IMG/VR virus record: IMGVR_UViG_3300041964_000083
Location: 32,001-96,000 of that record
Reading direction: 5' to 3' (one strand)
DNA from: a virus
Length of the DNA stretch: 64,000 bases
Shown: positions 12,225 through 33,000 of the stretch, piece by piece
How positions within the stretch are numbered: the first letter of the stretch is position 1
Layout: each line of letters opens with the position of its first letter
Translations under genes and position numbers: made by a program
The notes under the pieces: generated by a model
The model's input: the letters and a program-made list of their open reading frames with translations, nothing else
Databases searched by the model: none
Told to the model about the DNA's origin: nothing

Positions 12225-13399
12225 TTAATCGTTGGTTTCAAGAACAAATACTTGCGTACCTCGACCCAGATAATGCCAAGGCACTGGCACGATTAGATAG
12301 CAAAAGCCTTGAAGAGGAGTTTCAAACGGTTGTTCAACTCCTTGTTGATGCTCCTGATGACATCCGAATAGATGATGGGGTTGAGCCAACTGAAACATTG
12401 GTTGAGCAGATAAGCGATCGCGTAACATCCACGGTTATTAATCTGTTTGCGCCAGTTCTCGCCAAAATTGAATCCAAGTTATCTAGATCTGACAACGAAA
12501 CGTTGTCAACTGAAGAACTATTACCTGCAATTACCCGATCAGATGCTAACGTTCCTATTAAACGTGTAGTCAAACATCAAGGATTTGAGATTGGCATTAC
12601 GCACGAGAAGGATGCCATACGTTTCCCTTACTCGTTACCCCTATCGGCTGGGTATGGGCATATTCGACGCTCATACGGCGCAGCCGAGGACAAGAAGGCT
12701 ATCGATGTGTACTGGGGTGGGGATGAATCGGCTACAGATGTATATAGAGTGCGCCAACTCAACCCTGATACAGGGTTTGTAGCAGAACACGACTACTTCA
12801 TGGGGTTTGGTGGAGAAGATGCTCCTAAAGCGATTAGGGAGCTATATCTTCGACATTTAGGACAAAAGCGGTTTGGTGGGTTAGAGAAAGTAGATTTATC
12901 TCAGATTACCCAATATCAAGATAAACCATCAGAAGTGATTCCAGAAGGACATCATTGGGTAAAAAACGATAACGTCGTGGGTGGTGGTTACATCCGACGA
13001 AATTGGCGAGAACAAAAAAAAACTGACAACGATGCGTTGTTAACCGATTGGGATAATCTTCGCTACGATTCTCCAAATCAAGATGATTGGGATGATTCAG
13101 ACTACATAATTGACCACACAATGCAGCAATCGGGCAAAGTGTTCAATCGTTGGCTATCTAAGATTCAAGACTGGGTGGGCGAACAAGGAAGTTTAGAGAA
13201 TGCACGCGATCGCATTCATGAACTTTACCAACACCTTGACGGAAAACAACTCGCCCAAGTTTTAGAGCAAGGAATGACATTAGCAGATTTGAGCGGACGT
13301 TTAGCTGTGGTAACCGAAAGTGCCGAAGACGAAGAAGAAGCCAACACTGGCGCAGAAGAAGAAAGTCAAGACCGTGATGCATCGATGGAAAGAGGGTAA
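12221..13399 (+). CDS. Head-region protein with InPase-like domain and Mu gp29-like C-terminal helices
   Basis: YGHIRRSYG..D..IDVY..VYRVRQ..G..EH..MGF; SLENARDRIHELYQHLD..LAQVLEQGMTLADLSGR. Confidence 0.6.
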   Translation: MINRWFQEQILAYLDPDNAKALARLDSKSLEEEFQTVVQLLVDAPDDIRIDDGVEPTETLVEQISDRVTSTVINLFAPVLAKIESKLSRSDNETLSTEELLPAITRSDANVPIKRVVKHQGFEIGITHEKDAIRFPYSLPLSAGYGHIRRSYGAAEDKKAIDVYWGGDESATDVYRVRQLNPDTGFVAEHDYFMGFGGEDAPKAIRELYLRHLGQKRFGGLEKVDLSQITQYQDKPSEVIPEGHHWVKNDNVVGGGYIRRNWREQKKTDNDALLTDWDNLRYDSPNQDDWDDSDYIIDHTMQQSGKVFNRWLSKIQDWVGEQGSLENARDRIHELYQHLDGKQLAQVLEQGMTLADLSGRLAVVTESAEDEEEANTGAEEESQDRDASMERG

Positions 13400-15062
13400 G
13401 CTTCATGTCGGCAAGTCTGACAAAATCGTGACTTCACAAAAACAGGCGGTCGTGATCGCGTTAAATCAATCGGGGTTATCCAATCGCAAAAAAAAGGCTC
13501 ATAGAAAAGATGCTGATAATGCTATTAATATCAGTCTTGCGCTCAAGCGAATTATTGGTTCGGTATATCGCGATGGTGTAGACGCAGTTCTTTCTTATGA
13601 TACGGATGCGACAGGTGGGATATCAGGGTTATTCCGTGATGGTCGTGAAGTATTTGATTACAGTATTGCCCCAACCGGACAAATCATGTATGTTGAAGTT
13701 GCTGATGCGAGACGGGATGCTTACCTAGAAGGGTTTTATCTGGCAGGGCGAGTACCTGATTGCAGCATTAGTAATACGTATACAAAATCAGTTTTAGAGA
13801 CAGAGCTAACACGAATAGATACTAAAAAATCACGCAAATGTAGTAGTGGTAAGTCTTGTGGCGGTAGTTGTATCGCTAAAGGTTTTAGGTGTGTTCAACA
13901 ACTTGGTCAAGGCGAACAACTTGCAGTTAAACGAATATCTCAAACTATAAAAGCCCAAAAAAGCAAAAAACAATCTCCGTTAGATACATTGAAACGTCAT
14001 GCACCAATTCTTGCTGGGATTGCAGGCGCAGGGTTGTTAGGTGCTGCGGCAGTAGGAGTCGCAATGGCAAACCAAGGCAAGCCATCTCCTACAACTACGC
14101 CTGTTAAACCTAAAGAGTATTCACCTACAACTCCTGCACAAAATCCGACATCACAACCCAAGCCACAAGCACCAGCAACAAAAAAACAATCCGGTGTAGC
14201 TGACCCGTGGGATGGACCAGAACCCGATCCTTGGGAAGGGCAAGTCACGCCAAGACCAGATACACCTCAACCTAAAACAACTCCCAAAATTACACCAGGC
14301 GCTACACCACAATTAGTACCATCACCACAACCAAAACCCCAAAACGAGGAATTTCTTCGGGAATCCACAGCTAGTGAGGCTGAAGCTGCTAAAAACACGT
14401 TACTTAATAAAAATACCGGATATAAACTTAATGAAGCTCTGGATATCCAAGGATTTGATAGCGATACAGCAAGCAAGCTAAACCATACTGTTAATCAAAT
14501 TCATAAAACAGTAAATATTCCTAATTTGTCCAAAATCCCTGTTCAGCCGTCTACGGATGGTAAAGACGACGGTAATTATTATTCTGCAACTTGTACTGAC
14601 GGTAAAACAGGTGCGTTTTTAGGACGAGTACCATTAAAGATTGAACTAGATCCAAACGGTAATCGCAAAGAATCAGCGCTTGTTCACGAAGTTGGACATT
14701 TTATTCACCATTCTGCAATTGGCGATCCTAAAGAAGGGTATAAGGGCAAAATAAAGCCTGAAATGCAAGAGTTATTTAATGCTGTAAACAAGACAAATGC
14801 TGTAAAAAAACTCGATAAGTTAGTACGTACTGCTCGAAACCAAGATATTCGTGAGCGGGCAAATTATCTCAACCAACCAGAAGAATTGTTTGCTCGTGCT
14901 TTTACTCAATACATTGCTAAAAAATCTGGTTCTAAGATATTACAAGTGCAAGTCAAGATGGGGCAAAAAGGCAAAGCCGTTGAATACTGGGATGATCGCG
15001 AATTTAGTCGTACTGTAGAACCTGCAATGGATAAATTTGCTAAAGATATGGGATGGAGATAA
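13320..15062 (+). CDS. Cys4-module protein with zincin metallopeptidase payload
   Basis: DUF6496-like N-terminus, shared domain A, Cys4 motif at 13839, TM, Pro-rich linker, HEVGH and EELFARAF. Confidence 0.75.
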   Translation: MPKTKKKPTLAQKKKVKTVMHRWKEGKLHVGKSDKIVTSQKQAVVIALNQSGLSNRKKKAHRKDADNAINISLALKRIIGSVYRDGVDAVLSYDTDATGGISGLFRDGREVFDYSIAPTGQIMYVEVADARRDAYLEGFYLAGRVPDCSISNTYTKSVLETELTRIDTKKSRKCSSGKSCGGSCIAKGFRCVQQLGQGEQLAVKRISQTIKAQKSKKQSPLDTLKRHAPILAGIAGAGLLGAAAVGVAMANQGKPSPTTTPVKPKEYSPTTPAQNPTSQPKPQAPATKKQSGVADPWDGPEPDPWEGQVTPRPDTPQPKTTPKITPGATPQLVPSPQPKPQNEEFLRESTASEAEAAKNTLLNKNTGYKLNEALDIQGFDSDTASKLNHTVNQIHKTVNIPNLSKIPVQPSTDGKDDGNYYSATCTDGKTGAFLGRVPLKIELDPNGNRKESALVHEVGHFIHHSAIGDPKEGYKGKIKPEMQELFNAVNKTNAVKKLDKLVRTARNQDIRERANYLNQPEELFARAFTQYIAKKSGSKILQVQVKMGQKGKAVEYWDDREFSRTVEPAMDKFAKDMGWR

Positions 15063-15312: not shown

Positions 15313-16203
15313 ATGACAAGTTCAGCTTACTATCAGAGTTTTGTTGAAACAACTAATAGGGTGAGACGCGATCGCATTAAAGAACGTACTGGTCGTGTGC
15401 GTTTTACAAAAGCAAAGTGCAAAAAAGGTAAGCCTTGTGGCGATATCTGCATACCTCAAAAAGCTAAATGTAATGAAGGAAATGTTCGCCCACCTAAATC
15501 ACAAGCAAATAGCATAGCCGCAAATGCTATTAGGGGTGCGGTGGCGGTAGCTGGTTTGGCTTTAGGGGCTAAAATGATTCAAGATATACAAAAAGAAGGC
15601 GAAGAAATAAAACAAGCTAAAGAAAAAGTAGCTGCTGCTGGCAAGTACAACGAAAATTTAAATAATTGGAATAAAAAATATGCAGGTAAACAATATACCG
15701 AGTTCACAACAGAAGAATGGGAACAAGCCCGTGATGAGTTTCAAAAGAATCGAGAAGAATTTAAGCGCAAAGCTGGCTTTGACCCAGATCCAGGATTTGA
15801 TGACCGATGGAAACAATCTGTAGGTTCAGGAAAACACAAACCAGATCCCGTCAAAAACGAACAAGGTAAAGCTTATTATGACGTGTTAGGTGTGCCTAAA
15901 AATGCGTCACCTCAACAAATCAAAGCGGCTTACCGCAAGCTTGCAGCACAGCTTCATCCGGATAATCGTGAAACAGGCAACCCAGATAAGTTCAGAGAAG
16001 CGACTGAAGCTTATGAAAAAGCTCAAGCACACAAAGGTTCTGCAAGAGGCAAAGGTAATCGCAAGGATAGCGTTTGGGACGACATTGAATCTGCTTATAA
16101 TGAGGCAATAGCACAACATCCAGCAATGCCCAGTAGCTACTGGTACAACTTTTCAACATACGACCCATACAACGCTTGGCGTAAGCCACTTGATTTGCTA
16201 TGA
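15313..16203 (+). CDS. Cys4-module protein with J-domain payload
   Basis: Cys4 at 15418, TM, YYDVLGV...AYRKLA..LHPD...EAYE. Confidence 0.8.
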
Positions 16204-16550
16204 ATAGTGCCGCTTATTACACCAGTTTTATTCAGACAACTGCTAGGGTAAGACGTGATCGTGCCTTACGTGCTAAACCCAAATGTAAACCCGGAAATAA
16301 ACCTTGTGGGCAACGCTGCATCCCACAAGAAGACATATGTCGTCAAAATAGCGCGGGTATGCGAGGAGCTATTCCTGCTGCACTAGCAGCTACGGCTGTC
16401 CTAGCAACAGCTGGAACTTTGTATGCTAAAAACAAGCAACGCCAAAAAAGTCAAACTGAAGATAAAGAACTTGACGAAGGATGGAACCGTCTAGGACATG
16501 AAAGTACTGAAATTTTGAGAAGAGTGCAAGGAAAAAAGAAAAGAAGCTAG
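16200..16550 (+). CDS. Minimal Cys4-module protein
   Basis: N-terminus paralogous to 15313; Cys4 at 16284; TM; short tail. Confidence 0.75.
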
Positions 16551-16568: not shown

Positions 16569-17318
16569 GTGCCAAAGCGACCAGAATATTTAAACCAACC
16601 ATTTCAGGAAGCAATTGATTACTTTAAAGACAAAGTACCTTTTCCAACGCAACGTGGGCAGAAAGTGCCTGAAGGTTTCCACGACCACGCTTTCACTATC
16701 ACAGGACTTACCAAAGGCAGTTTACTAGAAGATGCCAAGTGGCTTATTGAACGGGCAATGGAAGACGGTACAGGACTAGACGACTTCACCCGTCAATTTA
16801 ATCGCTTAATTGGGCGCAAGGGATGGCAACCTGGTGATCGCCGCATTCAAACTATTTTTGACACTAATATTCGTCGCAGTTATAGTGCAGGACGGCGTGA
16901 GCAAATGCTTGACCCCGACATAGCTGATCGTCGTCCGGGTTGGATGTGGATTCATAGGACGCCAGGGAAAGAAGAAGGTGGAACACCCAGACTACACCAC
17001 CAAGCGTTGCATCGCAAAGTATTTAGGAATACTGAGACATTTTGGGATAAAGCCTTTGCTCCCTGCGGATTTGGCTGTCGCTGTACTGTTATGACGTTAA
17101 GCGAGAAACAAATGGAACGCATGGGTGTTACGTATGAAACTCCACCTAATCCTAATACCATTGCAGAACCTGGGTTTAGGAGTGCCGCAGGTTCATCGCC
17201 TAAAGAATCGCGACAACAAATCCTAAAAGACGGATTAACGGGTCTTTCTCCTAGCATTAGAGAAGTGGTGGAAAAAGACCTTAGCGCCAAAGGAGTTTTG
17301 GACGATGGTAACGATTAG
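16569..17318 (+). CDS. Phage Mu F-like minor head protein (short form)
   Basis: PFQEAIDYF, AFTITG, RIQTIFDTNIRRSYSAGR, R.HH, FW....PCGFGCRC. Confidence 0.9.
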   Translation: MPKRPEYLNQPFQEAIDYFKDKVPFPTQRGQKVPEGFHDHAFTITGLTKGSLLEDAKWLIERAMEDGTGLDDFTRQFNRLIGRKGWQPGDRRIQTIFDTNIRRSYSAGRREQMLDPDIADRRPGWMWIHRTPGKEEGGTPRLHHQALHRKVFRNTETFWDKAFAPCGFGCRCTVMTLSEKQMERMGVTYETPPNPNTIAEPGFRSAAGSSPKESRQQILKDGLTGLSPSIREVVEKDLSAKGVLDDGND

Positions 17319-17760
17319 TGCTGCAATAAGCGATCGCGAACTCAAAGATAAACTTACCCAACTTCAGCAGGTTACAGCCGATTTAGGTAAACTCAAGCTT
17401 GTTGTAGGAACTCCTATCAAATACATGAAACAGCATCAGTTAGGTACAAATGGAATGACAAAACGAGAGTTTTTGGGGATTAGTCGAACTGATCGCCAAG
17501 AAATAATTGAAATTTTTGATGATGCTATAGCCGAGCCTGTACCAAGAGGTGCTGAAATTGCTTTACGTGAATGCGGTGAAACGTTACTCCTAAGTATAGA
17601 TACCCGTTGGGATAGAGAAATTGCGCCAGATGGTACACCTTGGAAGAAAAACACACCTTACACAAGAAGGTTAAAAAAAGCCAAAGGACGAATACTAAAA
17701 ACATTGCAATCTACAGGTCTAGCACGCGCAAGCATTAACTACCAAATCATTCGTGAGTAA
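17305..17760 (+). CDS. Mu gpG / phage virion morphogenesis-like protein with rearranged motif order
   Basis: VGT..Y..HQLG...REFLGIS and PDGTPW...LQSTG..SI motifs; directly after MuF. Confidence 0.75.
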   Translation: MVTISAAISDRELKDKLTQLQQVTADLGKLKLVVGTPIKYMKQHQLGTNGMTKREFLGISRTDRQEIIEIFDDAIAEPVPRGAEIALRECGETLLLSIDTRWDREIAPDGTPWKKNTPYTRRLKKAKGRILKTLQSTGLARASINYQIIRE

Positions 17761-18409: not shown

Positions 18410-19969
18410 TTGGTGGCTACACGCTACGACTCAGGCAAACTTCGTAAAGCTCATAAAACTGCCGAAGGCGCATTGTTTTCGGAAGCTATTTATGCGCGAG
18501 ATGGCGTTTTAGAGTATCGCCTTCCCAACGGTGGGACAAGGCGAGAACTTCGCTTACCAGAAACCAACTACGACGAGGAAACGCTGACTAGTTACGGCTC
18601 AAAACCTATAACGGTCGAGCATCCACCTGTTTTAGTGACAGCGGATAATGCAAAAACTTATCAAGTTGGAGCATCAGATGCTGAACCAATGTATGAACGT
18701 CGCTACGAAAAGGGTTTTGTTGGCGGCATTGTTCGTATTTGGCATAGCGATGGCGTGAATGCTGTTGAGTGCAATGGGAAGAAAGAAGTATCCATTGGTT
18801 ACACCTGTGACATTGAACCCGTTGGTGGCATCTACTACCCAAAAACAGGCACTTATGTTGTTACCGATGCTGCTCCAGATAAGGGTGGTGAACGATTTGA
18901 CGCCATTCAGCGCAACGTTCGCGTAAACCATATTGCACTTACTTCTAAAGGTCGTGCTGGTCCAGAAGTCTGCTTGCGAATTGATAGCGAAGACGATGAT
19001 GTTGCCATCCTTGCCAAACCGTTTGAATTTCGCAAAGACGAATATGTAATTCCTGATTCTCCTTTACCTACTACTAACTCACCCACAAAACGCATGGCTG
19101 TCATCCGTATCGACAACATGGATTTTTCTGATGTGCCGGAAACTGTTGCGGTACTGATGAACCAAAAACTCAACGCTCTTGTAGAGCTTCAATCTCGCAA
19201 AGACGCTTTAGAGATTCAATTTCAAGAGCGCGAAGAACAACTCGATGAATTGCGAGAACAAGTAGACGAAGTTGCCGACGAGCGCGATCGCGAACGTGGT
19301 AGGGCTGACGCTTTAGAAATTCAACTCGCTGAAGCTGAAAGTAGGCAAGATGCTGCGATGCCATACAAAGGCAAGAAAAAAGGCAAAGCTCCCATTGTTG
19401 AGGTTGACGAAGACGAAGATTTTGACCCAGATGATATCGACGAGCTGGGTGACGATGACGAAGCTGACGATGAGGACGATGACGAAGATATGGAACCTAC
19501 GCCAATACCAAAGAAAAAAGGGGGACGGAAGGATTCTGATTTTGTTGATGTTGACCCTCATCAGCTGTTTGTTGCTTACGTTGATGCCAACAAAATTGTC
19601 CCTGGTTTGATTTCTGAAGACAAACTTGATTCGTTTGCCACACCTACCGATGTTCGTCGGCTGGCTATAGAAACGCTTAATCCCGATATTGACTTAACAA
19701 ATCGGAGTGATGCCTATGTTGATGGGGTTTATGACTTTATCAAATCTCAAAAGCTTCAAACTACCGAACAGTACCCGGAGCAGCTAGAACGTAACGACAG
19801 TATTAACACTACTTCCTATATCGGTTCTCATACACCACCTAGCGAAATTCAAACTGCGATCGCGCAAGCTCGCTCAAATAGCACTCCTACTTCCCCGCTG
19901 CAAGGTGCAGCAGAAAAGCAACGCGACCTCTACATGAATTCTTGGAACAAACCCCTCGACTTGGTTTAA
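18410..19969 (+). CDS. DUF2213-family prohead protease/scaffold protein
   Basis: ARDGVLEY, PITVEHP, EVSIGY, QRNVRVNHIALTSKGRAG, followed by an acidic coiled-coil scaffold region. Confidence 0.88.
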   Translation: MVATRYDSGKLRKAHKTAEGALFSEAIYARDGVLEYRLPNGGTRRELRLPETNYDEETLTSYGSKPITVEHPPVLVTADNAKTYQVGASDAEPMYERRYEKGFVGGIVRIWHSDGVNAVECNGKKEVSIGYTCDIEPVGGIYYPKTGTYVVTDAAPDKGGERFDAIQRNVRVNHIALTSKGRAGPEVCLRIDSEDDDVAILAKPFEFRKDEYVIPDSPLPTTNSPTKRMAVIRIDNMDFSDVPETVAVLMNQKLNALVELQSRKDALEIQFQEREEQLDELREQVDEVADERDRERGRADALEIQLAEAESRQDAAMPYKGKKKGKAPIVEVDEDEDFDPDDIDELGDDDEADDEDDDEDMEPTPIPKKKGGRKDSDFVDVDPHQLFVAYVDANKIVPGLISEDKLDSFATPTDVRRLAIETLNPDIDLTNRSDAYVDGVYDFIKSQKLQTTEQYPEQLERNDSINTTSYIGSHTPPSEIQTAIAQARSNSTPTSPLQGAAEKQRDLYMNSWNKPLDLV

Positions 19970-19972
19970 ATT

Positions 19973-20848
19973 ATGGCTGAATTCTTTCCCACACATAACC
20001 CAGTCGGAGGGCAAACCGACTATCGCACTGATATGTTTGTTGCCTTACCCGGAATGCTTTCCGGTATGGGTAGCTCACGTATTCTCCCTCACGTTAATGA
20101 CGTTGGTGCTGTTGACACGTACACAATAACCACTGGCGCAGTTACAGCAAACACCGAATACAGCGCAATGATTCAAGGGCAACGCATCAGTTATATGTCA
20201 GATGCTGATCCGACTATTGCTGAAGTCATTACTGGAATCTACAACGAGATTAGGTTAAAACCTACGGTGTATCGTCTTGCCGACTTGACTAAAAACGATA
20301 CAACCAACACGCTTACACTAACTGGACGCATTCAAGGCGTACCGTTAAGCATTACGGGGCAAGGACTAACCGTTACCAAAGTGGTAACGGGTTCTAACCT
20401 ATGTGACGCATCTAATCTTGTCATTCCCTTCGGTCGTTTTGTTGGTCGAAAAACCGATTACAAACTCGACCCGCGTGAAGGTGTGAGTTCAGCAACATTG
20501 ATTGACTCGCTCACTGACGAAATCTTGGGCATCACCAAACGTACTCATCACACCGAACAAGTTGGGTATTTCCACTGCGCTCAAAGTGGATATATGTTCG
20601 GGGACACCATGAACGTCATGGAAGACACCGGAACGATTAAGGGTATCTGGACAGAGTGTGTTGAAGCTGATTTAAAGATTGGCGAGAAAGCCTATTGCGC
20701 GATCGCACCCGGTTTAAAAGGCAAGCTCACTCGCGACACTACGGGCAAAGACATTTCTGCAATGTGCCGAATTGTGGGAGCAACCGAACCTACGGTTGGC
20801 GGACTTTTCATGGCGTTATGCCAGTTCAACCGCTACGGAACTTGGTAG
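19973..20848 (+). CDS. Head decoration / minor capsid protein
   Basis: Lies between DUF2213 and the major capsid gene; PGM, IPFGRFV, G.IW motifs. Confidence 0.65.
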   Translation: MAEFFPTHNPVGGQTDYRTDMFVALPGMLSGMGSSRILPHVNDVGAVDTYTITTGAVTANTEYSAMIQGQRISYMSDADPTIAEVITGIYNEIRLKPTVYRLADLTKNDTTNTLTLTGRIQGVPLSITGQGLTVTKVVTGSNLCDASNLVIPFGRFVGRKTDYKLDPREGVSSATLIDSLTDEILGITKRTHHTEQVGYFHCAQSGYMFGDTMNVMEDTGTIKGIWTECVEADLKIGEKAYCAIAPGLKGKLTRDTTGKDISAMCRIVGATEPTVGGLFMALCQFNRYGTW

Positions 20849-20889
20849 GCAAAACAGCTAATAACGAACGACTAACAACCAATAATTAA

Positions 20890-21825
20890 ATGGCAATCAA
20901 ATCCTATCAAGCTGAACTTAGAACCGACTCTCCAGGCGTCATGGCATTTGCTCGTGACCTTGAGTACAAAGAAGCTAGGGTAATCGAGCAAGTTTATCCG
21001 GAGAAAAAAGCCGCCAACGGCTTGATGATTCAAATTGAAGAGGTCGAGATGCCGTGGGCGCTCTCCACCAGCTTCCGCATGACAGATGGAGTTGGTAGCT
21101 TCGAGCTAGCCGACGACTTCACCACCAACCTCCCATTCGTGGATATGGTGGCTACCGAATTCAAGAACGATGTTAAATCTTATCGTTCTGGCTACTACTA
21201 CTCCGAAAAAGAAGTAGCAGCTTTTAATCACTTAGGCTTACCTATTGATGAACAAAAGATTGCGCTAGTTCGTAAGGCTTATGTTCAAACACTCAATAGG
21301 CTAATACTGTTTGGCGATCGCAAGACGGGAATGCCGGGATTTGTTAACCATCCTGCGTTCTTGCGTTCAATCTCTCCCTATAAACTCGACGGTTCTGTAG
21401 GAAATGCCAACCAGCTTATCTCCGCACTTACATTTGGGATGAGTGCTGTATCTGACTCTACAATCGACGCGCTCGAATGTGACACCATCTGGCTTCCACG
21501 TAAACAGTTTACGTTTATGAACTCCCAAGCCCGGATGGATGGTGCTCTGGAAAAAACTGTACTCAAGTTCTTTAAGGAGAACAACACTAACCCAAACGTT
21601 CAGATCGGCTGGATGCGGGAATTAGAAGGTTGTGGACCTAACGGGGAAGACGTAGCACTCTTCTACTCTAGAAACCCCATGTATGTAAAGGCGCGTATTA
21701 CTGACCCCTTCCGCTTCCGTCAGCTGATGGTCTACCCGTTCATGCTGTATCGCCCTGTGGCGTTTGATTGGAACGGCATCCAAGTTTACAACCCCTACTC
21801 CGTTCATGTCATGATCGGAGTTTAA
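20890..21825 (+). CDS. Major capsid protein (DUF2184 family, HK97 fold)
   Basis: LE......YP, YSEKEVAA, NRLILFGD..GMPGFVNHP, ELEGCG, G.QVYNP; canonical position. Confidence 0.88.
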   Translation: MAIKSYQAELRTDSPGVMAFARDLEYKEARVIEQVYPEKKAANGLMIQIEEVEMPWALSTSFRMTDGVGSFELADDFTTNLPFVDMVATEFKNDVKSYRSGYYYSEKEVAAFNHLGLPIDEQKIALVRKAYVQTLNRLILFGDRKTGMPGFVNHPAFLRSISPYKLDGSVGNANQLISALTFGMSAVSDSTIDALECDTIWLPRKQFTFMNSQARMDGALEKTVLKFFKENNTNPNVQIGWMRELEGCGPNGEDVALFYSRNPMYVKARITDPFRFRQLMVYPFMLYRPVAFDWNGIQVYNPYSVHVMIGV

Positions 21826-23667: not shown

Positions 23668-23872
23668 CGACTCACACCTTAAGAAATCGCTATTTAGTGA
23701 CATCTGCACCAAATGCAAGCACTTAGACTTAGAATCTGCCAAAACAGATAAGAAAATCTGTACAGCATTCCCCGATGGTATCCCATTTGAAATATGGTCG
23801 GGTAAGAATGACCACAAGAAACCCTATCCAGGTGATCGCGGTATTCAATTTAAGCTCAAAACCATTAAATGA
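23657..23872 (+). CDS. Small Cys/His protein (CxxC...CxAFPDGIP...H..PYPGD.GIQF)
   Basis: Coupled to both neighbours; potential metal ligands. Confidence 0.7.
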
Positions 23873-25311
23873 ACGCAGCAACTCTCCCTAAACTTAGCCC
23901 TCAGCAACGCATTCGATTAATGCTCAAGCGTGTTATCGAGAGCGGATTTACGTCAGGGATTAATGGGGTGTTGAGTTTTGATTTGGAAGAAGATGGAAAG
24001 ATAACGGGAAAGTTTTTAGAGAATCGTCAGGTTTATGACTTCGCGATTACACCTAACAATATTTTGAGTTATGTAGAATCAAAAGTTAGGAGTGATGCTT
24101 ACCTTATTGGCTACTACGGAGATAGCGGTTTATTAAAATATGGAGCAAGACTAGACACAAGTAGTAGCAAGCGTCGTTGTGTAGCAGGTAAGCCATGCGG
24201 AAAGACTTGTATTACCAAAGGCAAGAAGTGTTCGATTAAGCTTGGCAATGTCGCAGCTAAAACAATGGGTGCAATTCGCACTCAATTAAAATCTGCACCG
24301 CCTGACACAAATAAGCAAGATGTTGCCAAAAAATATAATGTAACTCCATTAATAGCAGCCGGTGCTATAGCAGGTGCTGCTGTAATTGGGATGTCCGCAG
24401 CTAGCTATATGGCATTTCGTTCTGAATATCGAGAAGGATTTAAGGAGTCTGCCGAAAAGGTAAAAACAGCTGTTAAAGAGAAGCTTGACAAGGATTCTGA
24501 TACTACACCGCTTAAGACAGGCTTGAATGGTGACAAAGACATTGATGCTGATGAAATAACACTTGTTGTTGGTGGTTTTGCTGGACAAGATGGAAAAAAT
24601 TCTGAAAAATGGGCAAAACAATTACTAGGTAATGATGGATTATTTGATAATCATTATGTAGAGCCTATTGAAAATAAAGAATTTGATGTAGATTTTCAAG
24701 AACATATTGAAAACACTAAAAAAGGTCAGTTTAGTCCTGGAACAATTACAGGAAATAATAAAATTTTAGCAATGGAAATGTCTTGGGCAAAGATGCTCAA
24801 TACAGCTATTGGTAAAAAACATAACCCTGTTTCAGTGAACCTTGCAACCCAAGCTTATTATTATCACCAAAAATATCCAGATAAACCTATTAACTTGATG
24901 GGTTATTCGGCGGGTGGGATGGTTACACACGAAGCTGCGGAGATATTAAAAGAGTTGGGTGTTACTAAAAATGTAAAAACCGCTAATTTTGGTAGCCCTT
25001 ATTGGGGGTTGACAGAAAAAGTTGGAGATTCAATTACATTTGCATCTGATAACGATCAGAATATGACAGGAATGCCCATTCGCGATCGCGTAGAAGTAAG
25101 TTCAGTACATAATCATTTTGATTATTTAAAAAACCCTACGGTTAGAAAACAACTCAAAGGATTCTTGGGTGGTAAAGCCGTATCTGGTGAAAAAATTAGC
25201 AAAGAGCAAGAAGAGCGCATTAAAAAAGCTCAGTCACGACGGGAAAAACGTAATCCTGAAGAATTGAAGCGAAAATTAGAAGAGCGCAATAGACGGAGAA
25301 AACAAAACTAA
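23869..25311 (+). CDS. Cys4-module protein with alpha/beta-hydrolase payload
   Basis: Domain A, Cys4 at 24178, TM, VVGGFAG, GYSAGG, FGSP, HNH. Confidence 0.8.
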
Positions 25312-27569
25312 TGGTTGCAACTTCAGTTTCTACACCGTCTAGACAACAGACCGCATTAGCTTTAAAAAAGATTATTGAGTCTTCATTTACTAGCGGTATA
25401 GATGCTGTACTTAGTTTTGCGTTGGATGAAGACAATACGATTACAGGTAAATTTTTAGAAAATCGTCAAGTTTATACTTTTGAGATATCTCCAAAAAACA
25501 GAATTCGGTATGTTGAAGCACAAGCAAAAAGCGATGCATATCTAGCGGGTTTTGTTGAAGTTATGCCTATCCGCTTAGACAAAATGAACGGAGGTAAGAA
25601 GAAGCGCTGTATTGTTGGTAAAGCGTGTGGTGGTACTTGTATAGCAAAAGGAAAGGTGTGCGATCGCGAACTATCACCTAAAGCTGCCCAATTAAGTAAC
25701 GCAGTGCGAAAGGTGTTAGGTGGCAGCACAACTAAACCACCCGAACAGAAATTTCCAAAGATTAATCCAGGTCTTGTCGGTGCAGCTGTATTTGCAGCTG
25801 GGGTATTAGGTGTGCCTGTTGCTGGATATTTAGCAACAAGAGCAACATACCGCGCAGGCTTTAGTGAATCTGCGGAGATTGCTAAAAAAGAAGCTGAAAA
25901 ATTAGCAACTCAAAATTATAAATGGACTAAACGAGACAAAAAGCTTATTGCAGCTTCAAAGTTTAAAGGCGAAGGTGTTCCTGAACCTAAAAGTGAAGGA
26001 GAGCCAGCAATTCCAGATGTACTCTACGGTGGAACTCCTAATGAACGGTATTTTTTAGGGGAAGTCGGAAAACGCTACGGCAAAGAACCAAGCGAAATGT
26101 ACAAAAAAGCTAAGCAAATTACGTTAGTTGCTAATGGGTTTGCCGGAGAAGACAACACGGACTCAGGCGTCAGTGTTTCAGGCGATTTGATGGGTAACGA
26201 TGGTCTATTTGACGATCACCACGTTGTTCCTATTGATGCGTCTGGTTTTTCCCCTAATTTCATGAAAGGTGAAGAAATTGCCAAAAACGTTTTAGAAAAA
26301 GTATTTAAAGAAGGTCGTAACCCCGTAGCCGTCAGAATGGCGTCACACGCCTACGCATTTAGTAAAAAACATCCAGATGTACCTATTAACCTAATTGGTT
26401 ATTCTGGTGCTGGAATGGCAACCCATGAGGCACAGGAAATATTAAAACAAATGGGTGTTAAGGTACGTGTTGCTAACTTTGGCTCACCTTACGGGGGGTT
26501 AACTGAAAAAGTAGGTGACTCGGTAACATTTAACAGCCCATCAGATTTTGTTACTCGTCATACACCTGTTCGAGACGAAATTAATGTTCCTCATGTAGAT
26601 GGACATTTTAAATATTTATTAGATAGCAAAGTCAGAGGAAAACTTCGGGATTACTTTGACGGCAAGAAAATTAAAGGTGAGCCAACATCTCTTGAGCAAG
26701 AAAGACACGCTCAAAATGTACTGAAAAAAGAGACATCGGCGTTTGCTGAAAAACAAGCTCGGTTAAGAGAAATTGACCGTAAGCGGAAAGAGCGTGGAGC
26801 AAAACGTAGTAAAAAAAAACTAGATAGCATCAAACCAAATTGTTCACCTAAAAGTAAATTGTGTGGCACTCGCTGTGTTCCTAAAGAATACAATTGCAAA
26901 CAAACTAAACAAAAACCATTCAATGCAACAAATGCTGTTTCTATAGGTGTTGGAATAGCTGCTACTGTGGGACTTGGGGCAGCTATAGCCATTCCGGCAT
27001 CGATGGCTCTACATACAGAAATTGCAAAAAATCGTGCTGAAACTGTAAAACGCAACGTTGAAAAAGAAGAAGATGCAATTAAAGACTCACCTGTTGAGCA
27101 TTTTGTAATTATTAATCCCAAAACAGGAAAGACAATAGCAAAAGGTTCTAGCAACGAAGCAACAAGAGTGGATATTCCTACTGAAGCTATGGGTAAAATG
27201 AAGGGCGCTATTTTTACCCATAATCATCCCAAAGCTCTTAATTTTCCAGAATCTCATCCTCAAGGTAAAGGTACTAGTTTTTCTGAAGCTGATATTCGTA
27301 TTTCTTGTCAAATGAATGTTAAAGAGATGCGTGCTGTGAGCCGAAAATATCGTCATAGCTTAAGCGTAGGTGCTAAGGGTTGGGGGGATTGGGATAATCA
27401 AGTAAAACCTATATACGACAAACACGACGAACAACTTCTAAAGGAATGTCAAGATCATATACTTTCTCGCAAATACAAAGCCGCAGAGCTAAACGCAATT
27501 TATCACCACGAACTCAATAAGCGTGTAGCTAAAGATATGGGATGGACTTACATACGAACACCTATTTAA
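25311..27569 (+). CDS. Two-module Cys4 protein: alpha/beta-hydrolase plus JAB/MPN-like domain
   Basis: Cys4 at 25608 and 26841, each followed by a TM; GYSGAG; E...THNHP...SFSEAD. Confidence 0.8.
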   Translation: MVATSVSTPSRQQTALALKKIIESSFTSGIDAVLSFALDEDNTITGKFLENRQVYTFEISPKNRIRYVEAQAKSDAYLAGFVEVMPIRLDKMNGGKKKRCIVGKACGGTCIAKGKVCDRELSPKAAQLSNAVRKVLGGSTTKPPEQKFPKINPGLVGAAVFAAGVLGVPVAGYLATRATYRAGFSESAEIAKKEAEKLATQNYKWTKRDKKLIAASKFKGEGVPEPKSEGEPAIPDVLYGGTPNERYFLGEVGKRYGKEPSEMYKKAKQITLVANGFAGEDNTDSGVSVSGDLMGNDGLFDDHHVVPIDASGFSPNFMKGEEIAKNVLEKVFKEGRNPVAVRMASHAYAFSKKHPDVPINLIGYSGAGMATHEAQEILKQMGVKVRVANFGSPYGGLTEKVGDSVTFNSPSDFVTRHTPVRDEINVPHVDGHFKYLLDSKVRGKLRDYFDGKKIKGEPTSLEQERHAQNVLKKETSAFAEKQARLREIDRKRKERGAKRSKKKLDSIKPNCSPKSKLCGTRCVPKEYNCKQTKQKPFNATNAVSIGVGIAATVGLGAAIAIPASMALHTEIAKNRAETVKRNVEKEEDAIKDSPVEHFVIINPKTGKTIAKGSSNEATRVDIPTEAMGKMKGAIFTHNHPKALNFPESHPQGKGTSFSEADIRISCQMNVKEMRAVSRKYRHSLSVGAKGWGDWDNQVKPIYDKHDEQLLKECQDHILSRKYKAAELNAIYHHELNKRVAKDMGWTYIRTPI

Positions 27570-27650: not shown

Positions 27651-28415
27651 TTGGCAGATTTATCAGACACCTACGTTGAGGCGTTACTCTTGCAGTTGGC
27701 TAGGGGTGATTCTGCTTGTAATGCTACTGAGCGTGTGCGATCGCGTGCTTATCGTCAAGGATTTTTGAGAATTGACCGCACAACCCCTAACTGTTCGCCC
27801 AAAAGCAAGTTGTGCGGAAATGCTTGTGTGCCTAAAACCAAAAAATGCAAATCGACAACAAAGCTATCTAGAGCAAGCTCACCAGACTTTGTTAGACAGA
27901 GAGTTGAGGCTGAAGAAGACAAACTAAAAGATCTTCCATACGAACACTTGTTAATAATCGATTCTAAGACTGGCGATGTACTAGCTCACCGTACTGACAA
28001 TCACCCTACACAGGTAGGTTTTGATGCTAGCGACTTTCCCAAGATAAAAGGCGCGATCGTTACCCACAATCATCCAAATGCTTACGGGTTCCCACCTAGC
28101 CATCCTGCTTCTAAAGGTATAAGTCTATCCCCTCCTGATATTCAAGTGGCTTGTACTTTTCGTCCAAAAGAAATGCGGGCTGTAAGCGCAGGCTATCGAC
28201 ACGTTCTTAGTCCGGGTGAAAAAGGTTGGGGGGATTGGAACTGGCGGGTAAAGCCAGTTTACGAGAAACACGAACGTCAAGTGATGAATGAATTTCAAAC
28301 AGATTTAATTTTAGGGAGAAAAGCAGCGTCACAGCTAGAAGCAGATTACCACCATGAAATAAATACTCGAACCGCAAAAGAGTTGGGATGGAAATACGAA
28401 AGGCAGGTTATTTAG
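27651..28415 (+). CDS. Cys4-module protein with JAB/MPN-like payload (no TM)
   Basis: Cys4 at 27792; EH...THNHP...SLSPPD; paralog of the C-terminal unit of 25311. Confidence 0.75.
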   Translation: MADLSDTYVEALLLQLARGDSACNATERVRSRAYRQGFLRIDRTTPNCSPKSKLCGNACVPKTKKCKSTTKLSRASSPDFVRQRVEAEEDKLKDLPYEHLLIIDSKTGDVLAHRTDNHPTQVGFDASDFPKIKGAIVTHNHPNAYGFPPSHPASKGISLSPPDIQVACTFRPKEMRAVSAGYRHVLSPGEKGWGDWNWRVKPVYEKHERQVMNEFQTDLILGRKAASQLEADYHHEINTRTAKELGWKYERQVI

Positions 28416-29018
28416 ATGGAGTTTAGAAAGCTTGTTCAACCCATAGCAGAAGCGATCGCGCTAACTTTTGATGCTCCTGTGGATGAAATTTTAACAGCTA
28501 ACCTTGATTCTGAAGGTATTGTGTTTGGACAACTTTTGTCTGAAGGTAAATTTTATTCTTATGCATCAAATGGTAATGAAGTTGTTACAAGCTACCACCA
28601 AGACGCAACTGATTATTTAGATGAATACGCAAAAGGTTTTTTAAATAATATAAATATTCATGTTGATTCATCAAATACTTATGATTACGCTTGTGGCTTC
28701 TTCCGAGTTGATGCACAAGTAAAATGTAGTCAAGGTAATCAACCTTGTGGAAATCGCTGTATTTCTAGAAAAAAGCGATGTCGTAAAAATATGAAAAACC
28801 CTGCTAAAAACGCGATGAGACAAGGACTTGTTAGTCTTAAAAATCCAGCTAATCAAGCATTTGGAGCAGCCGCAGGTATTGCAGGAACTGTAGGAACTGC
28901 TGTTTTAATGGGTGCGGGTATGGCTGCGGGTTCCGCACTTTACGAAAACAGAGAAACAATTATGCGAGATGTTCAATCAGGTATCGACAAAGCAAAGCAA
29001 CGTATTCAAGGCAAGTAA
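28416..29018 (+). CDS. Cys4-module protein, short
   Basis: Divergent domain A, RVDA, Cys4 at 28725, TM. Confidence 0.75.
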   Translation: MEFRKLVQPIAEAIALTFDAPVDEILTANLDSEGIVFGQLLSEGKFYSYASNGNEVVTSYHQDATDYLDEYAKGFLNNINIHVDSSNTYDYACGFFRVDAQVKCSQGNQPCGNRCISRKKRCRKNMKNPAKNAMRQGLVSLKNPANQAFGAAAGIAGTVGTAVLMGAGMAAGSALYENRETIMRDVQSGIDKAKQRIQGK

Positions 29019-29043: not shown

Positions 29044-30075
29044 ATGAACGACAGAGAAATTACACAACCAATTGCTGAAGCAATTACGCTAACATTTGAT
29101 GCTCCTGTTGATGCAGTATTAACCGCGAACCTAGATTCTGATGGTGTTTTGTTTGGTCAAATAATGTCCGGGGGAAACTTTTACTCATACATTGCCGATT
29201 CCGACACAATCACTACTTATTATCATCCCGAAGAAACTGAGTATCTAAACGAATACGCTCATGCCGTACTCGACAACATAGGTATTCATACTGATGCTTG
29301 GGAGACATACGATTATGCATTGGGGTTTTTCCGTGTTGATGCACAGATGAGATGCAAACCAGGAAACAAACCCTGTGGTAGGCGTTGTATCCCTCAGCAA
29401 ATGAAATGTAGAAGTGCAATGGGCGGTGGGGCGCAAGCAAAAATGCGACAAGGGCGTGCTAACTTACGCGCTCCTGGCGCAGGTGCAATTGCCGCTGGCG
29501 TTGTTGGTGCTGCGGCATTAGCTGCGGGTGGTGCTGCGGCTTATCAAAACAGAGAAGAGATTGCTAAAGGTGCAAAAAAAATTGGGCGACAGGTACAAAA
29601 AACCGCACTTGTAGCAAAGCGGGAAGTAGAAGGGAAAGCCGCAGAACTTGCTAGCAATGTCAACAAAGGTGTAGAGGTGGCTAAAGAAAACATTCAACAA
29701 GCTGCAAAGAAAACGGGTCAAGCGGCACGAATAGCTGGCAAGAAAGCGACACGCGCTGTAGAACGTACAAAAAAAGAAGTCGATAAAAATTACAAAGAAA
29801 CAAAAAAAGAAGTCGATAAGAAATACCATGAAACTCGTAAAGCGGCTATAAGAACAGCTAAAGAAGTAGGAGTCGCTGGCAAAAGACTTCAAAAACAAGC
29901 TGAACGGAAAGTAGCTGAAGTTACAAAAGGTGCTGAAAATACAGGTAAGAAGATTCAACAACAAGCACGCAAAAGCAAGAAGCGTGGTGAACGTTATGCT
30001 GCTGACCCAGAAAGAGTACAGAAAGTGGGTAAACGCTTAGGCGATCGCTGGGCAAGAAATATGGGAGCAAAATAA
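29044..30075 (+). CDS. Cys4-module protein with basic LEA-like helical tail
   Basis: Paralog of 28416; Cys4 at 29353; TM; TKKEVDK repeats. Confidence 0.75.
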   Translation: MNDREITQPIAEAITLTFDAPVDAVLTANLDSDGVLFGQIMSGGNFYSYIADSDTITTYYHPEETEYLNEYAHAVLDNIGIHTDAWETYDYALGFFRVDAQMRCKPGNKPCGRRCIPQQMKCRSAMGGGAQAKMRQGRANLRAPGAGAIAAGVVGAAALAAGGAAAYQNREEIAKGAKKIGRQVQKTALVAKREVEGKAAELASNVNKGVEVAKENIQQAAKKTGQAARIAGKKATRAVERTKKEVDKNYKETKKEVDKKYHETRKAAIRTAKEVGVAGKRLQKQAERKVAEVTKGAENTGKKIQQQARKSKKRGERYAADPERVQKVGKRLGDRWARNMGAK

Positions 30076-33000
30076 TGATTGCTGTTCGCTATGATCGTGC
30101 CAAACCTAATTGCAAAAAAGGTAAGCCTTGCGGTAGCGTTTGCATTCCGCAAAAAGCTAAATGTCGTAAAGAATCTCCACAAGAAACTAATACAGGTGGG
30201 GATGGCGCAATCAAAGCAGCGGGCTGGGCAGTTGCGGCTGCCGCAACTGCCGCATTAATTGGTGTGCCTGTAGCCACTTACGCTGGTGTGCGATCGCGTT
30301 ATCGAGAAGGGTTTAAAGAATCTGCCAAAATGGCACAGTCAATGGCAAAGGATATAGAACCTATCAATGTAAAGGAAAAACAGCACTCTGTTGTATTTTG
30401 TGTTGGTGGAATGGACTATGGGCATGAAAACACTAATCCTAATATTAGTGGCAGAATAATTTCTTTAGCCGTTAATAAGTCTTTATCCCAAAAAGATAAA
30501 GGACTAAAGACAATTCCTATTTCTACACAAGGTAGTAATTTAGATAAGAAAGAGAAACCAGAAGGTATTCATCAATTTGTTGCTGATGGATTTAAGCGAA
30601 CTGTTTACAAAAATGTGGTAGAGCAAGGTAGAAATAAAGCTGCGGTAAGGCTTGCTGCACAGGCGATCGCGTATCACGATAAATACCCAGATAAGCAAAT
30701 CGTCATGTTTGGTACTTCTATGGGTGGGATGATTGTCAATGAAGCACAGGAGATACTAAAACAAGCCAAACCGTCTATGAAGAGCAAGCTTAAGTCAATG
30801 ACGGTTGGAACTCCTTATTTTGGGCTAACTGAGCCTTGGGGAGAAACGACAGAGATTGCTGCACACGAAGACAAATTTACAACCGTTTTACCGACGCGAT
30901 CAAAGACTAAGTTATTTAATCTCAAGCACGTAAACACTAAATCTACGGATGTGCTTCATGGACATTTGTTAAGTGATTATTTTCAGTCAGATGAGGTGAA
31001 AAAACATTTATCAGATTTTATTTATAAAGATGTTAAAACAACTAAAAATACCAAAAAAGACTCAGCTAACGAACCTAAATGTCGGACAGGACAACCATGT
31101 GGGGAGATTTGCATACCTAAAACACATAAATGCAGAATAGGTTCTTATTCTCCTGCAAAAAAAGCAAAAGTTGAAGCTGTAAAAAGAAAACGACGACAAG
31201 TCGCATTAATGAAATTTTCTGCCGCAATAGGCGTACTTGTGGCATTTGAAGCTGCGGTTGTTGCCACGAATTACGCAATTGACAGAAGGAATGAGCAAAC
31301 AATAGCTGAAGAAAAAGAGGTTAAAGACGATTTTCAATCAGATGTCGACAATTTTGTAGATTTTCGTTCCGAAATGAGAGATAAGGCTCGATCATGGGGT
31401 GTTGGTCGAGGATATACGGATATTGAGCTTGTAGATGATTGGTATTGGGGCTTTCCTCCTACAGGGTATATGCAAGAACCTATTCAAAGTGAAAACCAAG
31501 AACTAGAACAAGTTAAAAAATCACTACAAGACATGGAAAAGAAGTGGCGCGATCGCGCTAACGTTGAGCATTTTAACAATATCCCTGATACAGCGCATAG
31601 CAAGAATAGAAAAAAAGCTACTACAGATTCTATTGCTGTCACCAATCCACATTATCAAAAACTTATATTTCAATTAAAAACTATTCTAAATCGTGTTTAT
31701 ACAGATGGTATTGATCATTTTATAAAAGTAGAAGTTGATAAGGCTAATACTATAACTGGGTTATTCAGAGATGGTACAAAAATATTAGAGTTTACGATTA
31801 AAGGTAACGACATTACTTATAAAAAAGCAGGATTTAAAAACAAAAAAGACTCAACTTATTATGATTCTTTGGCATTAGAGTTAACGTTACGTAGTGATGC
31901 GATCAAGAAAAAAGATAAATGCGTAAAGGGTATATCTTGTGGGGCAGCTTGTGTTGCTTCTAATAAATCATGTCGATTGAAAGCTAACGCGATCGCGTCA
32001 TTTGGGGAACTGGCTCAACTAAGAACTACGGCTGCTCAAGTTGGTGGTGGAACTGCACCAACACCCGTAGCCGATCAAGACACATATGAAACGAACCCAG
32101 ATACTGGACAACCCTACACTATTCGAGAGCTAAAGAAAAAAGCATCAGAAAAAGGAGTATATCGTTACTCTGAAATGACAAGTGATCAGCTTAAAGAGGC
32201 GTTAAGGGCAACAGATAAAGACCCTGACCAACAAGAAAGGCTAGGGAAAACTCTAACTAGAGAGCGATCACTTACTGGGCGTGCCCAACGCGCTGGTTTA
32301 ATTGGCAAAACTAAACCTGAAAAGCAATTTGTTCAATGGACGCGGGAATGGAACAAGATTTCTAAGTTTGCTGATTATGTCGGCAAAGCGCCACTAGGTT
32401 GGGGGATGACAGCAACTGCTGCATTCTTGGCGGGTACAGCAGTTCGTACTTATGAGCAAGCTAAAGACCACTATCGACAAGGTTTGAATGACTCAGCACG
32501 AGCCGCTGAAGCGCGTGCCGTTGGAATGGATACGAGTCGCGTTAGCAAAGAAAATATTGCATTTGTGGTTGGCGGTTTTAATGGGTTAGGGCATTCATCT
32601 CAGAAGATGCGCGAACTATTGGAAGAAGACCCTCAGCTAACTGATAAAAATCATTATGTGCAATTTGATTTAAAAGAAACCGATGTTCCTCCTTACGACG
32701 GTAACAAGCGTAACCCCGATGGTTCTTATAGTTTGGGTTATTTAGGGTATGTTGCAACTAGAGGTGTAGGGCAATTTGCTAAAGATTTGACCAGACAGCG
32801 TAACGATGATGCTGTAGAACTAGCCGCCCAAATTTATGCTCATGCGGTACGACGCAATGCGACCAATTATCAGATGGCGCATAAAGACAAAAGCTTCAAC
32901 ATCGTGTCGCATTCGGTAGGTGGCGAAGTCGTGAACCAAGCAATGGATATCCTATCCAAAATGAAAGCGGTAGGGGGGAAGAGTTCACCTACAGGGAAGG

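Follow-up and report, generated by a model that had tools for sequence, protein, structure and literature searches.

Head Module and Recurrent Motif

The window analysed here comprises bases 32001-96000 (64,000 nucleotides) of the 153,952-bp virus record IMGVR_UViG_3300041964_000083 of IMG/VR, the completeness of which is estimated at 98%. It contains, in adjacent positions, genes for a DUF2213 capsid-maturation protease fused to a scaffold, a cement (decoration) protein and the major capsid protein (window positions 18410-21825), and the short motif R-x-D-[S/A] recurs both in the protease-scaffold protein and upstream of four-cysteine (Cys4) modules in a set of putative virion cargo proteins. 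In the extended form [R/K/H]-x-D/[S/A/G], the slash marking the bond, this motif is most likely the cut site of the head-maturation protease. The window represents the structural region of a cyanophage of ~154 kb, which is a relative of Aphanizomenon phage CL131: by capsid protein, the nearest cultured relative is Aphanizomenon phage vB_AphaS-CL131 (50% identity), and lower identities were observed for Planktothrix phage PaV-LD (31%) and T1-like coliphages (~25%). The gene order MuF, protease-scaffold, decoration protein and PF09950 capsid protein is found also in TLS, T1, KP36, CL131 and PaV-LD. Coordinates of all features are given in Table 1.

Protease-Scaffold Protein

The DUF2213 protein matches Pfam family PF09979 with 86.2 bits (cut-off 22) over residues 16-189, and phrog_530, annotated as head maturation protease, with an E-value of 2.6e-64. 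Residues 1-205 were modelled by AlphaFold with 32 homologues; the model is reliable up to residue 183 (mean predicted local distance difference test score, pLDDT, 86.9 for residues 1-183) and disordered from residue 184 on (pLDDT <50). The preliminary description, made from the sequence of the window, had cited T4 gp21 as an example of prohead proteases that cut at short acidic motifs; in an exhaustive structural comparison of the protease domain, T4 gp21 (5jbl_A) ranked first (Z 13.1, root mean square deviation 2.5 A, 140/165 residues), far ahead of unrelated structures, the next matches being the proteases of varicella-zoster virus (VZV, Z 7.5) and human cytomegalovirus (HCMV, Z 5.4); that of Kaposi's sarcoma-associated herpesvirus (KSHV) gave Z 3.9. 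The top Foldseek match was gp21 too, and the N-terminal domain is assigned to the gp21/assemblin-fold proteases. Searching solved structures by sequence, with the protease as query, returned coiled-coil noise only.

His71, Ser128, His174 and Asp192, as well as the G-R-A-G turn at residues 181-184, are invariant in 32 sequences of 37-90% identity, and the first three are candidate catalytic residues of a serine-type protease. Asp192 belongs to RIDS 190-193, which had been placed at the protease/scaffold boundary; it lies at the start of the disordered linker (pLDDT <50) and is the expected self-release site. From RIDS 190 onward there are eight [RK]-x-D-[SAGT] sites, cutting at which would yield eight pieces of 14-73 residues; RKDE 208 and RIDN 233 fall outside this pattern and were left out of the fragment prediction. 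Two tetrapeptides of the same protein, RYDS 5-8 and RFDA 162-165, are located in beta-strands of the folded protease core and are not supported as cleavage sites, because they are buried there. In the former, R5 and D7 are nearly invariant and the P1' residue is free, including F, Y, I and L; in the latter, R162 is not conserved among DUF2213 homologues.

Motif Statistics

All tetrapeptides listed in the preliminary description were located at the positions given in it. In the DUF2213 protein they amount to 11 R-x-D (3.7 expected), and nine of them are R-x-D-[SA] (0.48 expected), a count reached by 0 of 2000 shuffles (P<0.0005). For R-x-D-[SAGT], nine occurrences versus 0.9 expected were found in the protease-scaffold and 17 versus 5.7 in the pooled cargo open reading frames (ORFs; both P<0.001); the count for all remaining window proteins (7 versus 5.4) equals expectation. 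The giant protein resembling a tape measure protein (TMP) is depleted (1 R-x-D, 6.5 expected, P(<=1)=0.009), and TMP gp049 of CL131 has one R-x-D versus 3.3 expected. Thus, of the proposed contrast between head and cargo proteins on the one hand and TMP and terminase TerL on the other, the enrichment of scaffold and cargo and the depletion of the TMP-like protein were borne out, whereas TerL proved to be an unclean negative control (see Proposed Cleavage Rule and Alternatives).

The excess is a family trait. Each of the 60 individually tabulated DUF2213 homologues (~30-91% identity) has 5-16 R-x-D versus 2-5 expected, and 2-11 R-x-D-[SA] versus 0.3-0.8. In an unbiased scan of 121 family sequences, including the query, R-x-D was the top over-represented one-gap residue pair (z 38.8). 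When shuffling was confined to 25-residue windows (41 homologues), R-x-D-[SA] was 12-fold up, K-x-D-[SA] 3.8-fold and H-x-D 3-fold; R-x-E-[SA] was depleted to 0.2-fold, and D-x-R, R-D, R-x-x-D and R-x-x-x-D showed no enrichment. Such Asp-only, spacing-specific enrichment, accompanied by depletion of R-x-E-[SA], speaks against a general influence of charge or coiled coils and in favour of a reader able to tell Asp from Glu. The profile of the scaffold sites is P3 R>K>H, P2 L/T/F/I, P1 D, and P1' S (5.4-fold), A or G. Many of these sites fall in alignment columns where [RKH]-x-D-[SAGT] is retained among homologues of 30-40% identity, with R, K and H replacing one another; others are lineage-specific. 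The recurrence of the motif is genuine: it goes far beyond chance and is retained in relatives.

Capsid and Decoration Proteins

In the major capsid protein, R11 and D13 of the sequence RTDS 11-14 are invariant in 26 homologues, and residues 1-10 vary in sequence and length. In alignments constructed by HMMER and MAFFT, D13 coincides with the Asp of K-N-D in TLS and of K-x-D in T1, JakobBernoulli and KP36. The N-terminus of the mature TLS capsid protein, determined by Edman degradation, is ASDMGIW (PMC11447400). It maps to residue 28 of TLS gp36, directly behind G-A-K-N-D, and the TLS capsid protein is therefore cut at K-N-D/A. The authors of that study surmised the removal of 45 residues and derived no cleavage rule (PMC11447400); mapped onto the capsid gene (L004, 15087-16061), their own Edman sequence corresponds to 27 removed residues, contradicting the proposed 45. 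As D13 aligns with this mapped site, S-P-G-V-M is the homology-based expectation for the mature N-terminus here: the capsid protein should start at Ser14, which agrees with the maturation site suggested in the preliminary description. The predicted propeptide is 13 residues long, compared with 27 in TLS.

The protease-scaffolds of TLS, T1, JakobBernoulli, KP36 and Vibrio 1.123.O contain 9-14 [RKH]-x-D-[SAGT] each versus ~1.5 expected, and the P3 residue covaries between scaffold and capsid, being Lys in both proteins of the T1-like phages and mostly Arg in both proteins of the cyanophage group. Papers on Rogue1, Sf11, Mu and AHP24 report trimming of the capsid or portal protein, the exact site being absent.

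An N-terminal RTD had been noted in the decoration protein as well. It is present (RTDM 18-21), but the orthologues CL131 gp039 and PaV-LD ORF072 contain zero R-x-D, and because of this lack of conservation we reject it as a site.

Cys4 Cargo Modules

The window encodes 14 copies of the Cys4 module, C-x5-6-C-G-x2-C-[IV]-x6-7-C, in ten ORFs (starting at 13320, 15313, 16200, 23869, 25311, 27651, 28416, 29044, 30075 and 50085). In most copies, it is followed by a Gly/Ala-rich hydrophobic helix and then by an enzyme-like or coiled region. The reported motif upstream of Cys4 is present in all cases: in each of the 14 modules, all on the plus strand, the first Cys is preceded at a distance of 4-15 residues by [RK]-x-D, and the sequence upstream of the modules is otherwise unconserved. 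The same holds for relatives, with 7/7 modules in CL131, 2/3 in PaV-LD (the third begins at Met), 4/4 in locus L008 and 3/3 in locus L010. Searched in full with HMMER, a set of 1.84 billion representative proteins yielded only 70 relatives; 94 of the 104 modules in these distant homologues are preceded by the motif, compared with 22% of random 22-residue windows. Before internal modules it is almost universal (87/89), and among modules situated <=25 residues from the protein start it occurs in 7/15 (Fisher P 1e-6). Retention before internal modules together with dispensability at N-terminal ones is what a junction or cleavage function predicts, unlike an integral fold element. Some cargo genes open with M-x(1-9)-Cys4, lacking both a pro-domain and R-x-D (PaV-LD, L003, 11894 onward; P0168, P0178, P0204); these may be units needing no processing.

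The motif also marks the internal boundaries of both multi-unit ORFs (25311-27569 and 30075-34724), whose units recur as stand-alone genes. The cargo leaders are folded domains of 40-100 residues ending in the motif. In the AlphaFold2 (AF2) model of ORF 28416-29018 (pLDDT 74.8), the confident N-terminal domain ends in helix 88-96, H-V-D-S and R-V-D-A occupy the loops flanking this helix, and the Cys4 hairpin spans residues 108-117; D99 is conserved in >=90% of 38 homologues. The cargo counterparts in CL131, the basic proteins gp045-048 (pI >9), are abundant in purified virions, and the CL131 DUF2213 protein (ORF038) was detected there, as fragments, with 30% coverage (PMC6293099 Table S5).

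ORF 12206-13399 carries RYDS in addition to the N-terminal tetrapeptides listed in Table 1 and has three R-x-D-[SA] versus 0.34 expected (P=0.007); its InPase domain (residues 118-237) scores 59 bits, above the cut-off. Zincin signs in ORF 13320-15062 are an HEVGH motif and a weak ATLF match (18.4 bits, cut-off 27.4).

Several further features of the cargo and scaffold proteins were observed. The pro-domain of ORF 28416-29018 (residues 1-66; 28416-28613) is modelled as a helix on a four-stranded sheet; the best matches in a fold search with it, cystatins and inhibitor or pro-domain folds at Z 6-7 (<=7.2), are at background level. Two paralogous units, the C-terminal one of ORF 25311-27569 and ORF 27651-28415, share H-N-H-P...S-x-S-x-x-D and are JAB/MPN-like by eye; a Pfam search at E <= 0.001 found nothing in ORF 25311-27569. 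J-domains occur in two Cys4-bearing virion-module proteins (ORF 15313-16203, 55 bits; 34545-34724, 52 bits). The scaffold tail (19931-19969) reads ...S-W-N-K-P-L-D-L-V and is copied at the end of one of these, the otherwise unrelated J-domain protein of ORF 15313-16203 (16165-16203). An aromatic element that begins at a putative site is shared three ways: it reads R-S-D-A-Y-V-D-G-V-Y in the scaffold (19703-19732), K-A-D-A-Y-I-D-T-A-F in TLS gp33 (residues 318-327) and [RK]-S-D-A-Y-L-x-G-[FY] in cargo ORFs 11736, 13320, 23869 and 25311, where it lies between two basic-x-Asp motifs 14-33 residues apart. Finally, the TMP-like ORF 34725-46190 opens with tandem units of ~40 residues (G-G-x-D...L-N-Q-S-L...F-N-S-T-F-x-R-G-x-Q-A-A-N).

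Table 1. Genes, domains and motif occurrences in the window (positions are those of the window; aa, amino acids).
Feature	Position	Strand	Remarks
RLDS, RIDD, RSDN, RSDA in N-terminal 115 residues of ORF 12206-13399	12290..12547	+	before InPase domain
RIDT + Cys4, ORF 13320-15062	13812..13892	+	zincin-like HEVGH protein
RRDR + Cys4, ORF 15313-16203	15364..15471	+	DnaJ protein; domain 55.2 bits
RRDR + Cys4, ORF 16200-16550	16251..16340	+	
MuF	16569-17318		head module; MuF domain 42.8 bits, above cut-off
Mu-G-like protein	17305-17760		head module
DUF2213 capsid-maturation protease fused to scaffold	18410..19969	+	519 aa; TTG start
Protease domain, residues 1-183	18410..18958	+	AF2 pLDDT 86.9; candidate catalytic His71, Ser128, His174
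RYDS 5-8, probably structural	18422..18433	+	beta-strand 2-16, pLDDT ~90
RFDA 162-165, probably no site	18893..18904	+	core motif Y/F-D-A-I-Q-R-N, core beta-strands
RIDS 190-193, at which the protease is predicted to release itself from the scaffold	18977..18988	+	D192 invariant; P3 R/H; P1' S
Scaffold sites RKDE 208, RIDN 233, RKDA 263, RADA 298, RQDA 312, RKDS 373, KLDS 405, RSDA 432, RNDS 461	19031..19801	+	
Cement/decoration protein	19973..20848	+	Pfam PF22758 Phage_cement, 39.5 bits
RTDM 18-21 of decoration protein, probably chance match	within 19973..20848	+	
Major capsid protein	20890..21825	+	PF09950, 87.2 bits; phrog_264; 50% identical to CL131 major capsid protein
RTD/S 11-14, predicted removal of 13-residue capsid propeptide	20920..20931	+	
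RLDT + Cys4, ORF 23869-25311	24148..24231	+	GYSAG hydrolase-like; RSDA 20 residues further upstream
RLDK + Cys4, first unit of ORF 25311-27569	25572..25661	+	
KLDS + Cys4, internal junction of ORF 25311-27569	26817..26897	+	second unit resembles stand-alone ORF 27651-28415
RIDR + Cys4, ORF 27651-28415	27768..27848	+	
RVDA + Cys4, ORF 28416-29018	28704..28781	+	HVDS 14 residues upstream
RVDA + Cys4, ORF 29044-30075	29332..29409	+	
RYDR + Cys4, start of ORF 30075-34724	30087..30164	+	1549 aa
KKDS + Cys4, internal junction 2 of ORF 30075-34724	31053..31133	+	
RSDA + Cys4, internal junction 3 of ORF 30075-34724	31890..31973	+	
RLDA + Cys4, internal junction 4 of ORF 30075-34724	33384..33467	+	
TMP-like protein, motif-poor comparator	34725..46190	+	3821 aa; position matches CL131 tape measure gp049
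RLDA + Cys4, ORF 50085-52139	50391..50468	+	
TerL (gpA-type ATPase)	55622-57541	-	

Comparison with Known Systems

The system is a member of the T1/TLS-type DUF2213 family. It shares with TLS gp33 and T1 gp50 the PF09979/phrog_530 family, with ~36% identity over the protease domain, the head gene order, a scaffold half saturated with basic-x-D-[SAG] and a homologous site in the capsid N-arm. The differences are the P3 residue (Lys in the T1-like phages, Arg here), the length of the capsid propeptide, and the Cys4 cargo modules, none of which were found in the T1-like regions examined.

T4 gp21 degrades the scaffold protein gp22 and trims gp23 as well as the internal proteins IPI-III and Alt, which bear a capsid-targeting sequence; it cleaves by the rule [L/I]-x-Glu. 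The two systems share the protease fold, a short acidic motif common to scaffold, capsid propeptide and packaged proteins, and the reduction of the scaffold to small peptides, which is predicted here. In contrast to T4, the motif here is basic-x-Asp, no x-Glu pattern being enriched, protease and scaffold form a single polypeptide, and the cargo leader is a domain of ~90 residues instead of a targeting peptide of ~10 residues. The phiKZ prohead protease gp175 processes inner-body proteins and pieces of the virion RNA polymerase at [S/A/G]-x-Glu. It is similar in that a prohead protease cuts many packaged proteins, including multi-unit precursors, and differs in motif and cargo. What sets the present system apart from gp21 and gp175 is the proposed Asp-specific rule and the fused scaffold. 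In herpesviruses (UL26 type), the assemblin protease is likewise fused upstream of the scaffold and, as predicted here, released by cleavage in the linker, and the order His...Ser...His of candidate residues is the same; however, the fold matches are far weaker than that of gp21 (VZV 7.5, HCMV 5.4 and KSHV 3.9 versus 13.1), and assemblin cleaves at Ala/Ser.

Pbunavirus proteins Pa193 gp24 and PB1 gp22 also belong to PF09979. By cryo-EM, a fragment of Pa193 gp24 (residues 286-326) is retained under the capsid five-fold vertices, and the protein was detected in virions, which parallels the detection of CL131 ORF038; the authors were unable to tell if gp24 is cleaved and did not call it a protease (PMC11456595). 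Mu gpI was considered as the equivalent of the DUF2213 protein and rejected, as it belongs to a different family; Mu I, T and portal proteins have no motif excess. Among domains typical of polyvalent proteins, LPD1 scored 25.4 bits, just under the cut-off of 27, and MuF and InPase scored above theirs; unlike in polyvalent proteins (Iyer et al., 2017; PMC5512222), MuF, InPase and LPD are encoded here by separate ORFs, not by one giant protein.

Proposed Cleavage Rule and Alternatives

The best explanation of the whole, to which we assign a probability of about 0.68, is that a gp21-fold protease cuts its own scaffold, the capsid protein and, less surely, the cargo after basic-x-Asp. Gene 18410-19969 would encode a serine-type protease of the T4 gp21/herpesvirus assemblin fold, fused to its own scaffold. 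The enzyme would recognize [Arg > Lys/His]-x-Asp, with a hydrophobic residue or Thr at P2, and cut behind Asp, preferably before Ser, Ala or Gly. First, it would free itself at R-I-D192/S in the flexible linker. Second, the scaffold would be cut at about eight further sites into the pieces described above. Third, the capsid protein would lose its 13 N-terminal residues through a cut at R-T-D13/S. Fourth, and with lower confidence, it may cut just upstream of the 14 modules combining Cys4 and a hydrophobic helix in ~10 virion cargo proteins. The cargo cuts would remove N-terminal pro-domains carrying the scaffold-like D-A-Y-x-x-G-F helix and separate the units of polyproteins 25311-27569 and 30075-34724, so that a short basic stretch and the Cys4 knot would come first in every enzyme unit. 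What the analysis shows are the motif statistics, the conservation of the motif, the fold and the correspondence of the capsid site, by homology, to a cleavage site known from the literature; that this phage cleaves at the motif, which residues are catalytic, and any processing of the cargo are what we infer. Cleavage of scaffold and capsid protein is clearly probable; for cargo cleavage, the chances appear to be about even.

Several observations weigh against this explanation. The rule is anchored by a single mapped site, that of the TLS capsid protein, which is ~20% identical to the capsid protein here. PB1 gp22 has 0 [RKH]-x-D-[SAGT] versus 1.1 expected; therefore the rule is clade-specific within PF09979. 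TerL, for which a substrate role is not expected, has three R-x-D-[SA] (R-L-D-A, R-T-D-S and R-A-D-A) versus 0.34 expected (P=0.002). There is, moreover, a resemblance between D-[SA]-x-E and the capping box of a helix N-cap. The search of CL131 virions allowed fully tryptic peptides only and was thus blind to N-termini (PMC6293099). Finally, the P1' residue is Arg or Lys at 5/14 cargo junctions, which is rare at scaffold sites, and in one cargo subfamily the motif is fixed 4-5 residues before the first Cys, within the block G-F-x-R-x-D-A-Q-V-K-C, so that in this subfamily it could belong to the fold.

The last two points would be accounted for if basic-x-Asp before Cys4 were recognized and not cut, either as an intrinsic part of the Cys4 domain or as a docking or capsid-targeting motif mimicking the scaffold, with only scaffold and capsid protein being cleaved. 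The pLDDT, which dips only to ~70 at the motif, so that no disorder is predicted, is consistent with this possibility, as is the copying of further scaffold elements by the cargo, namely the D-A-Y-x-x-G-F/Y helix and the ...W-x-K-P-L-D-L tail. However, the spacer between motif and first Cys ranges in length from 4 to 15 residues across the window, the loss of the motif from about half of the protein-starting modules is unexpected for an integral fold element, and in both polyproteins the motif sits exactly at the boundaries of units that also stand alone. We consider an uncut cargo motif unlikely.

The resemblance to an N-cap could also mean that the scaffold's R-x-D-[S/A] reflects structure and is unrelated to proteolysis, being for example an N-cap plus capping box or a set of salt bridges in a charged coiled coil. 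The scaffold is helical and highly charged, and its sites are rich in Glu/Asp at P3' and in hydrophobic residues at P2, as in N-cap and hydrophobic-staple motifs. Yet neither the strict basic residue two positions ahead of Asp nor the 0.2-fold level of R-x-E-[SA] and the unenriched D-x-R, R-x-x-D and R-D follow from such a signature, and the motif is found as well in the disordered protease-scaffold linker and at the capsid N-arm, where the TLS cut follows Asp. This makes a structural origin improbable.

Still less probable is processing of the cargo polyproteins by their own peptidases, either the HEVGH zincin-like protein of ORF 13320-15062 or the H-x-H...S-x-x-D JAB-like units, without the head protease. 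Peptidase families of the zincin or JAB type are not known to have basic-x-Asp specificity, and the zincin Pfam matches are under the curated cut-offs. The same junction motif saturates DUF2213 scaffolds, including those of the T1-like phages, where polyvalent proteins and zincins were not noted, though no zincin search was made there. On the other hand, MPTase domains have been proposed to process polyvalent proteins (Iyer et al., 2017; PMC5512222), InPase and MuF, two domains characteristic of that class, occur here, and ORF 13320-15062 combines HEVGH with weak ATLF and LPD1 matches. An origin of the recurrence by chance, or as a by-product of protein composition rich in Arg and Asp, which the enrichment of the non-substrate TerL might suggest, is ruled out by global and 25-residue local shuffles that never attain the observed counts, by the excess in every homologue examined and by the conservation of motif positions.

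If cargo is cut by the head protease after basic-x-Asp, a wider, tentative possibility is that this protease also governs loading and release in a modular system for the delivery of effectors, comprising at least 14 enzyme units, among them lipase-like hydrolases, JAB-like units, a zincin, two J-domains and a pyrophosphatase-like unit. Pro-domains imitating the scaffold would bring the units into the prohead, and cuts at R-x-D would free them, each starting with the basic Cys4 knot followed by the membrane helix. Ejection together with the DNA might then allow the units to insert into the membranes of cyanobacteria. Evolution could fuse or split such units just by retaining the four-residue junction.

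Implications for the DUF2213 Family

No published cleavage consensus for DUF2213 proteases was found in the literature searched (DUF2213, prohead-protease sites, Pa193 and E217). These proteases are widespread, with 1,122 records in one phage collection, including T1-like coliphages and therapy-relevant Klebsiella phages, and basic-x-Asp/small provides a testable cleavage rule for this large and barely studied family. Such a rule lets mature capsid, scaffold and cargo products be predicted from sequence, could explain puzzling densities and gel sizes, and helps to recognize packaged cargo proteins in uncultured phages. In the cyanophage described here, it outlines an uncommonly rich repertoire of membrane-anchored enzyme units, the likely destination of which is bloom-forming cyanobacteria.

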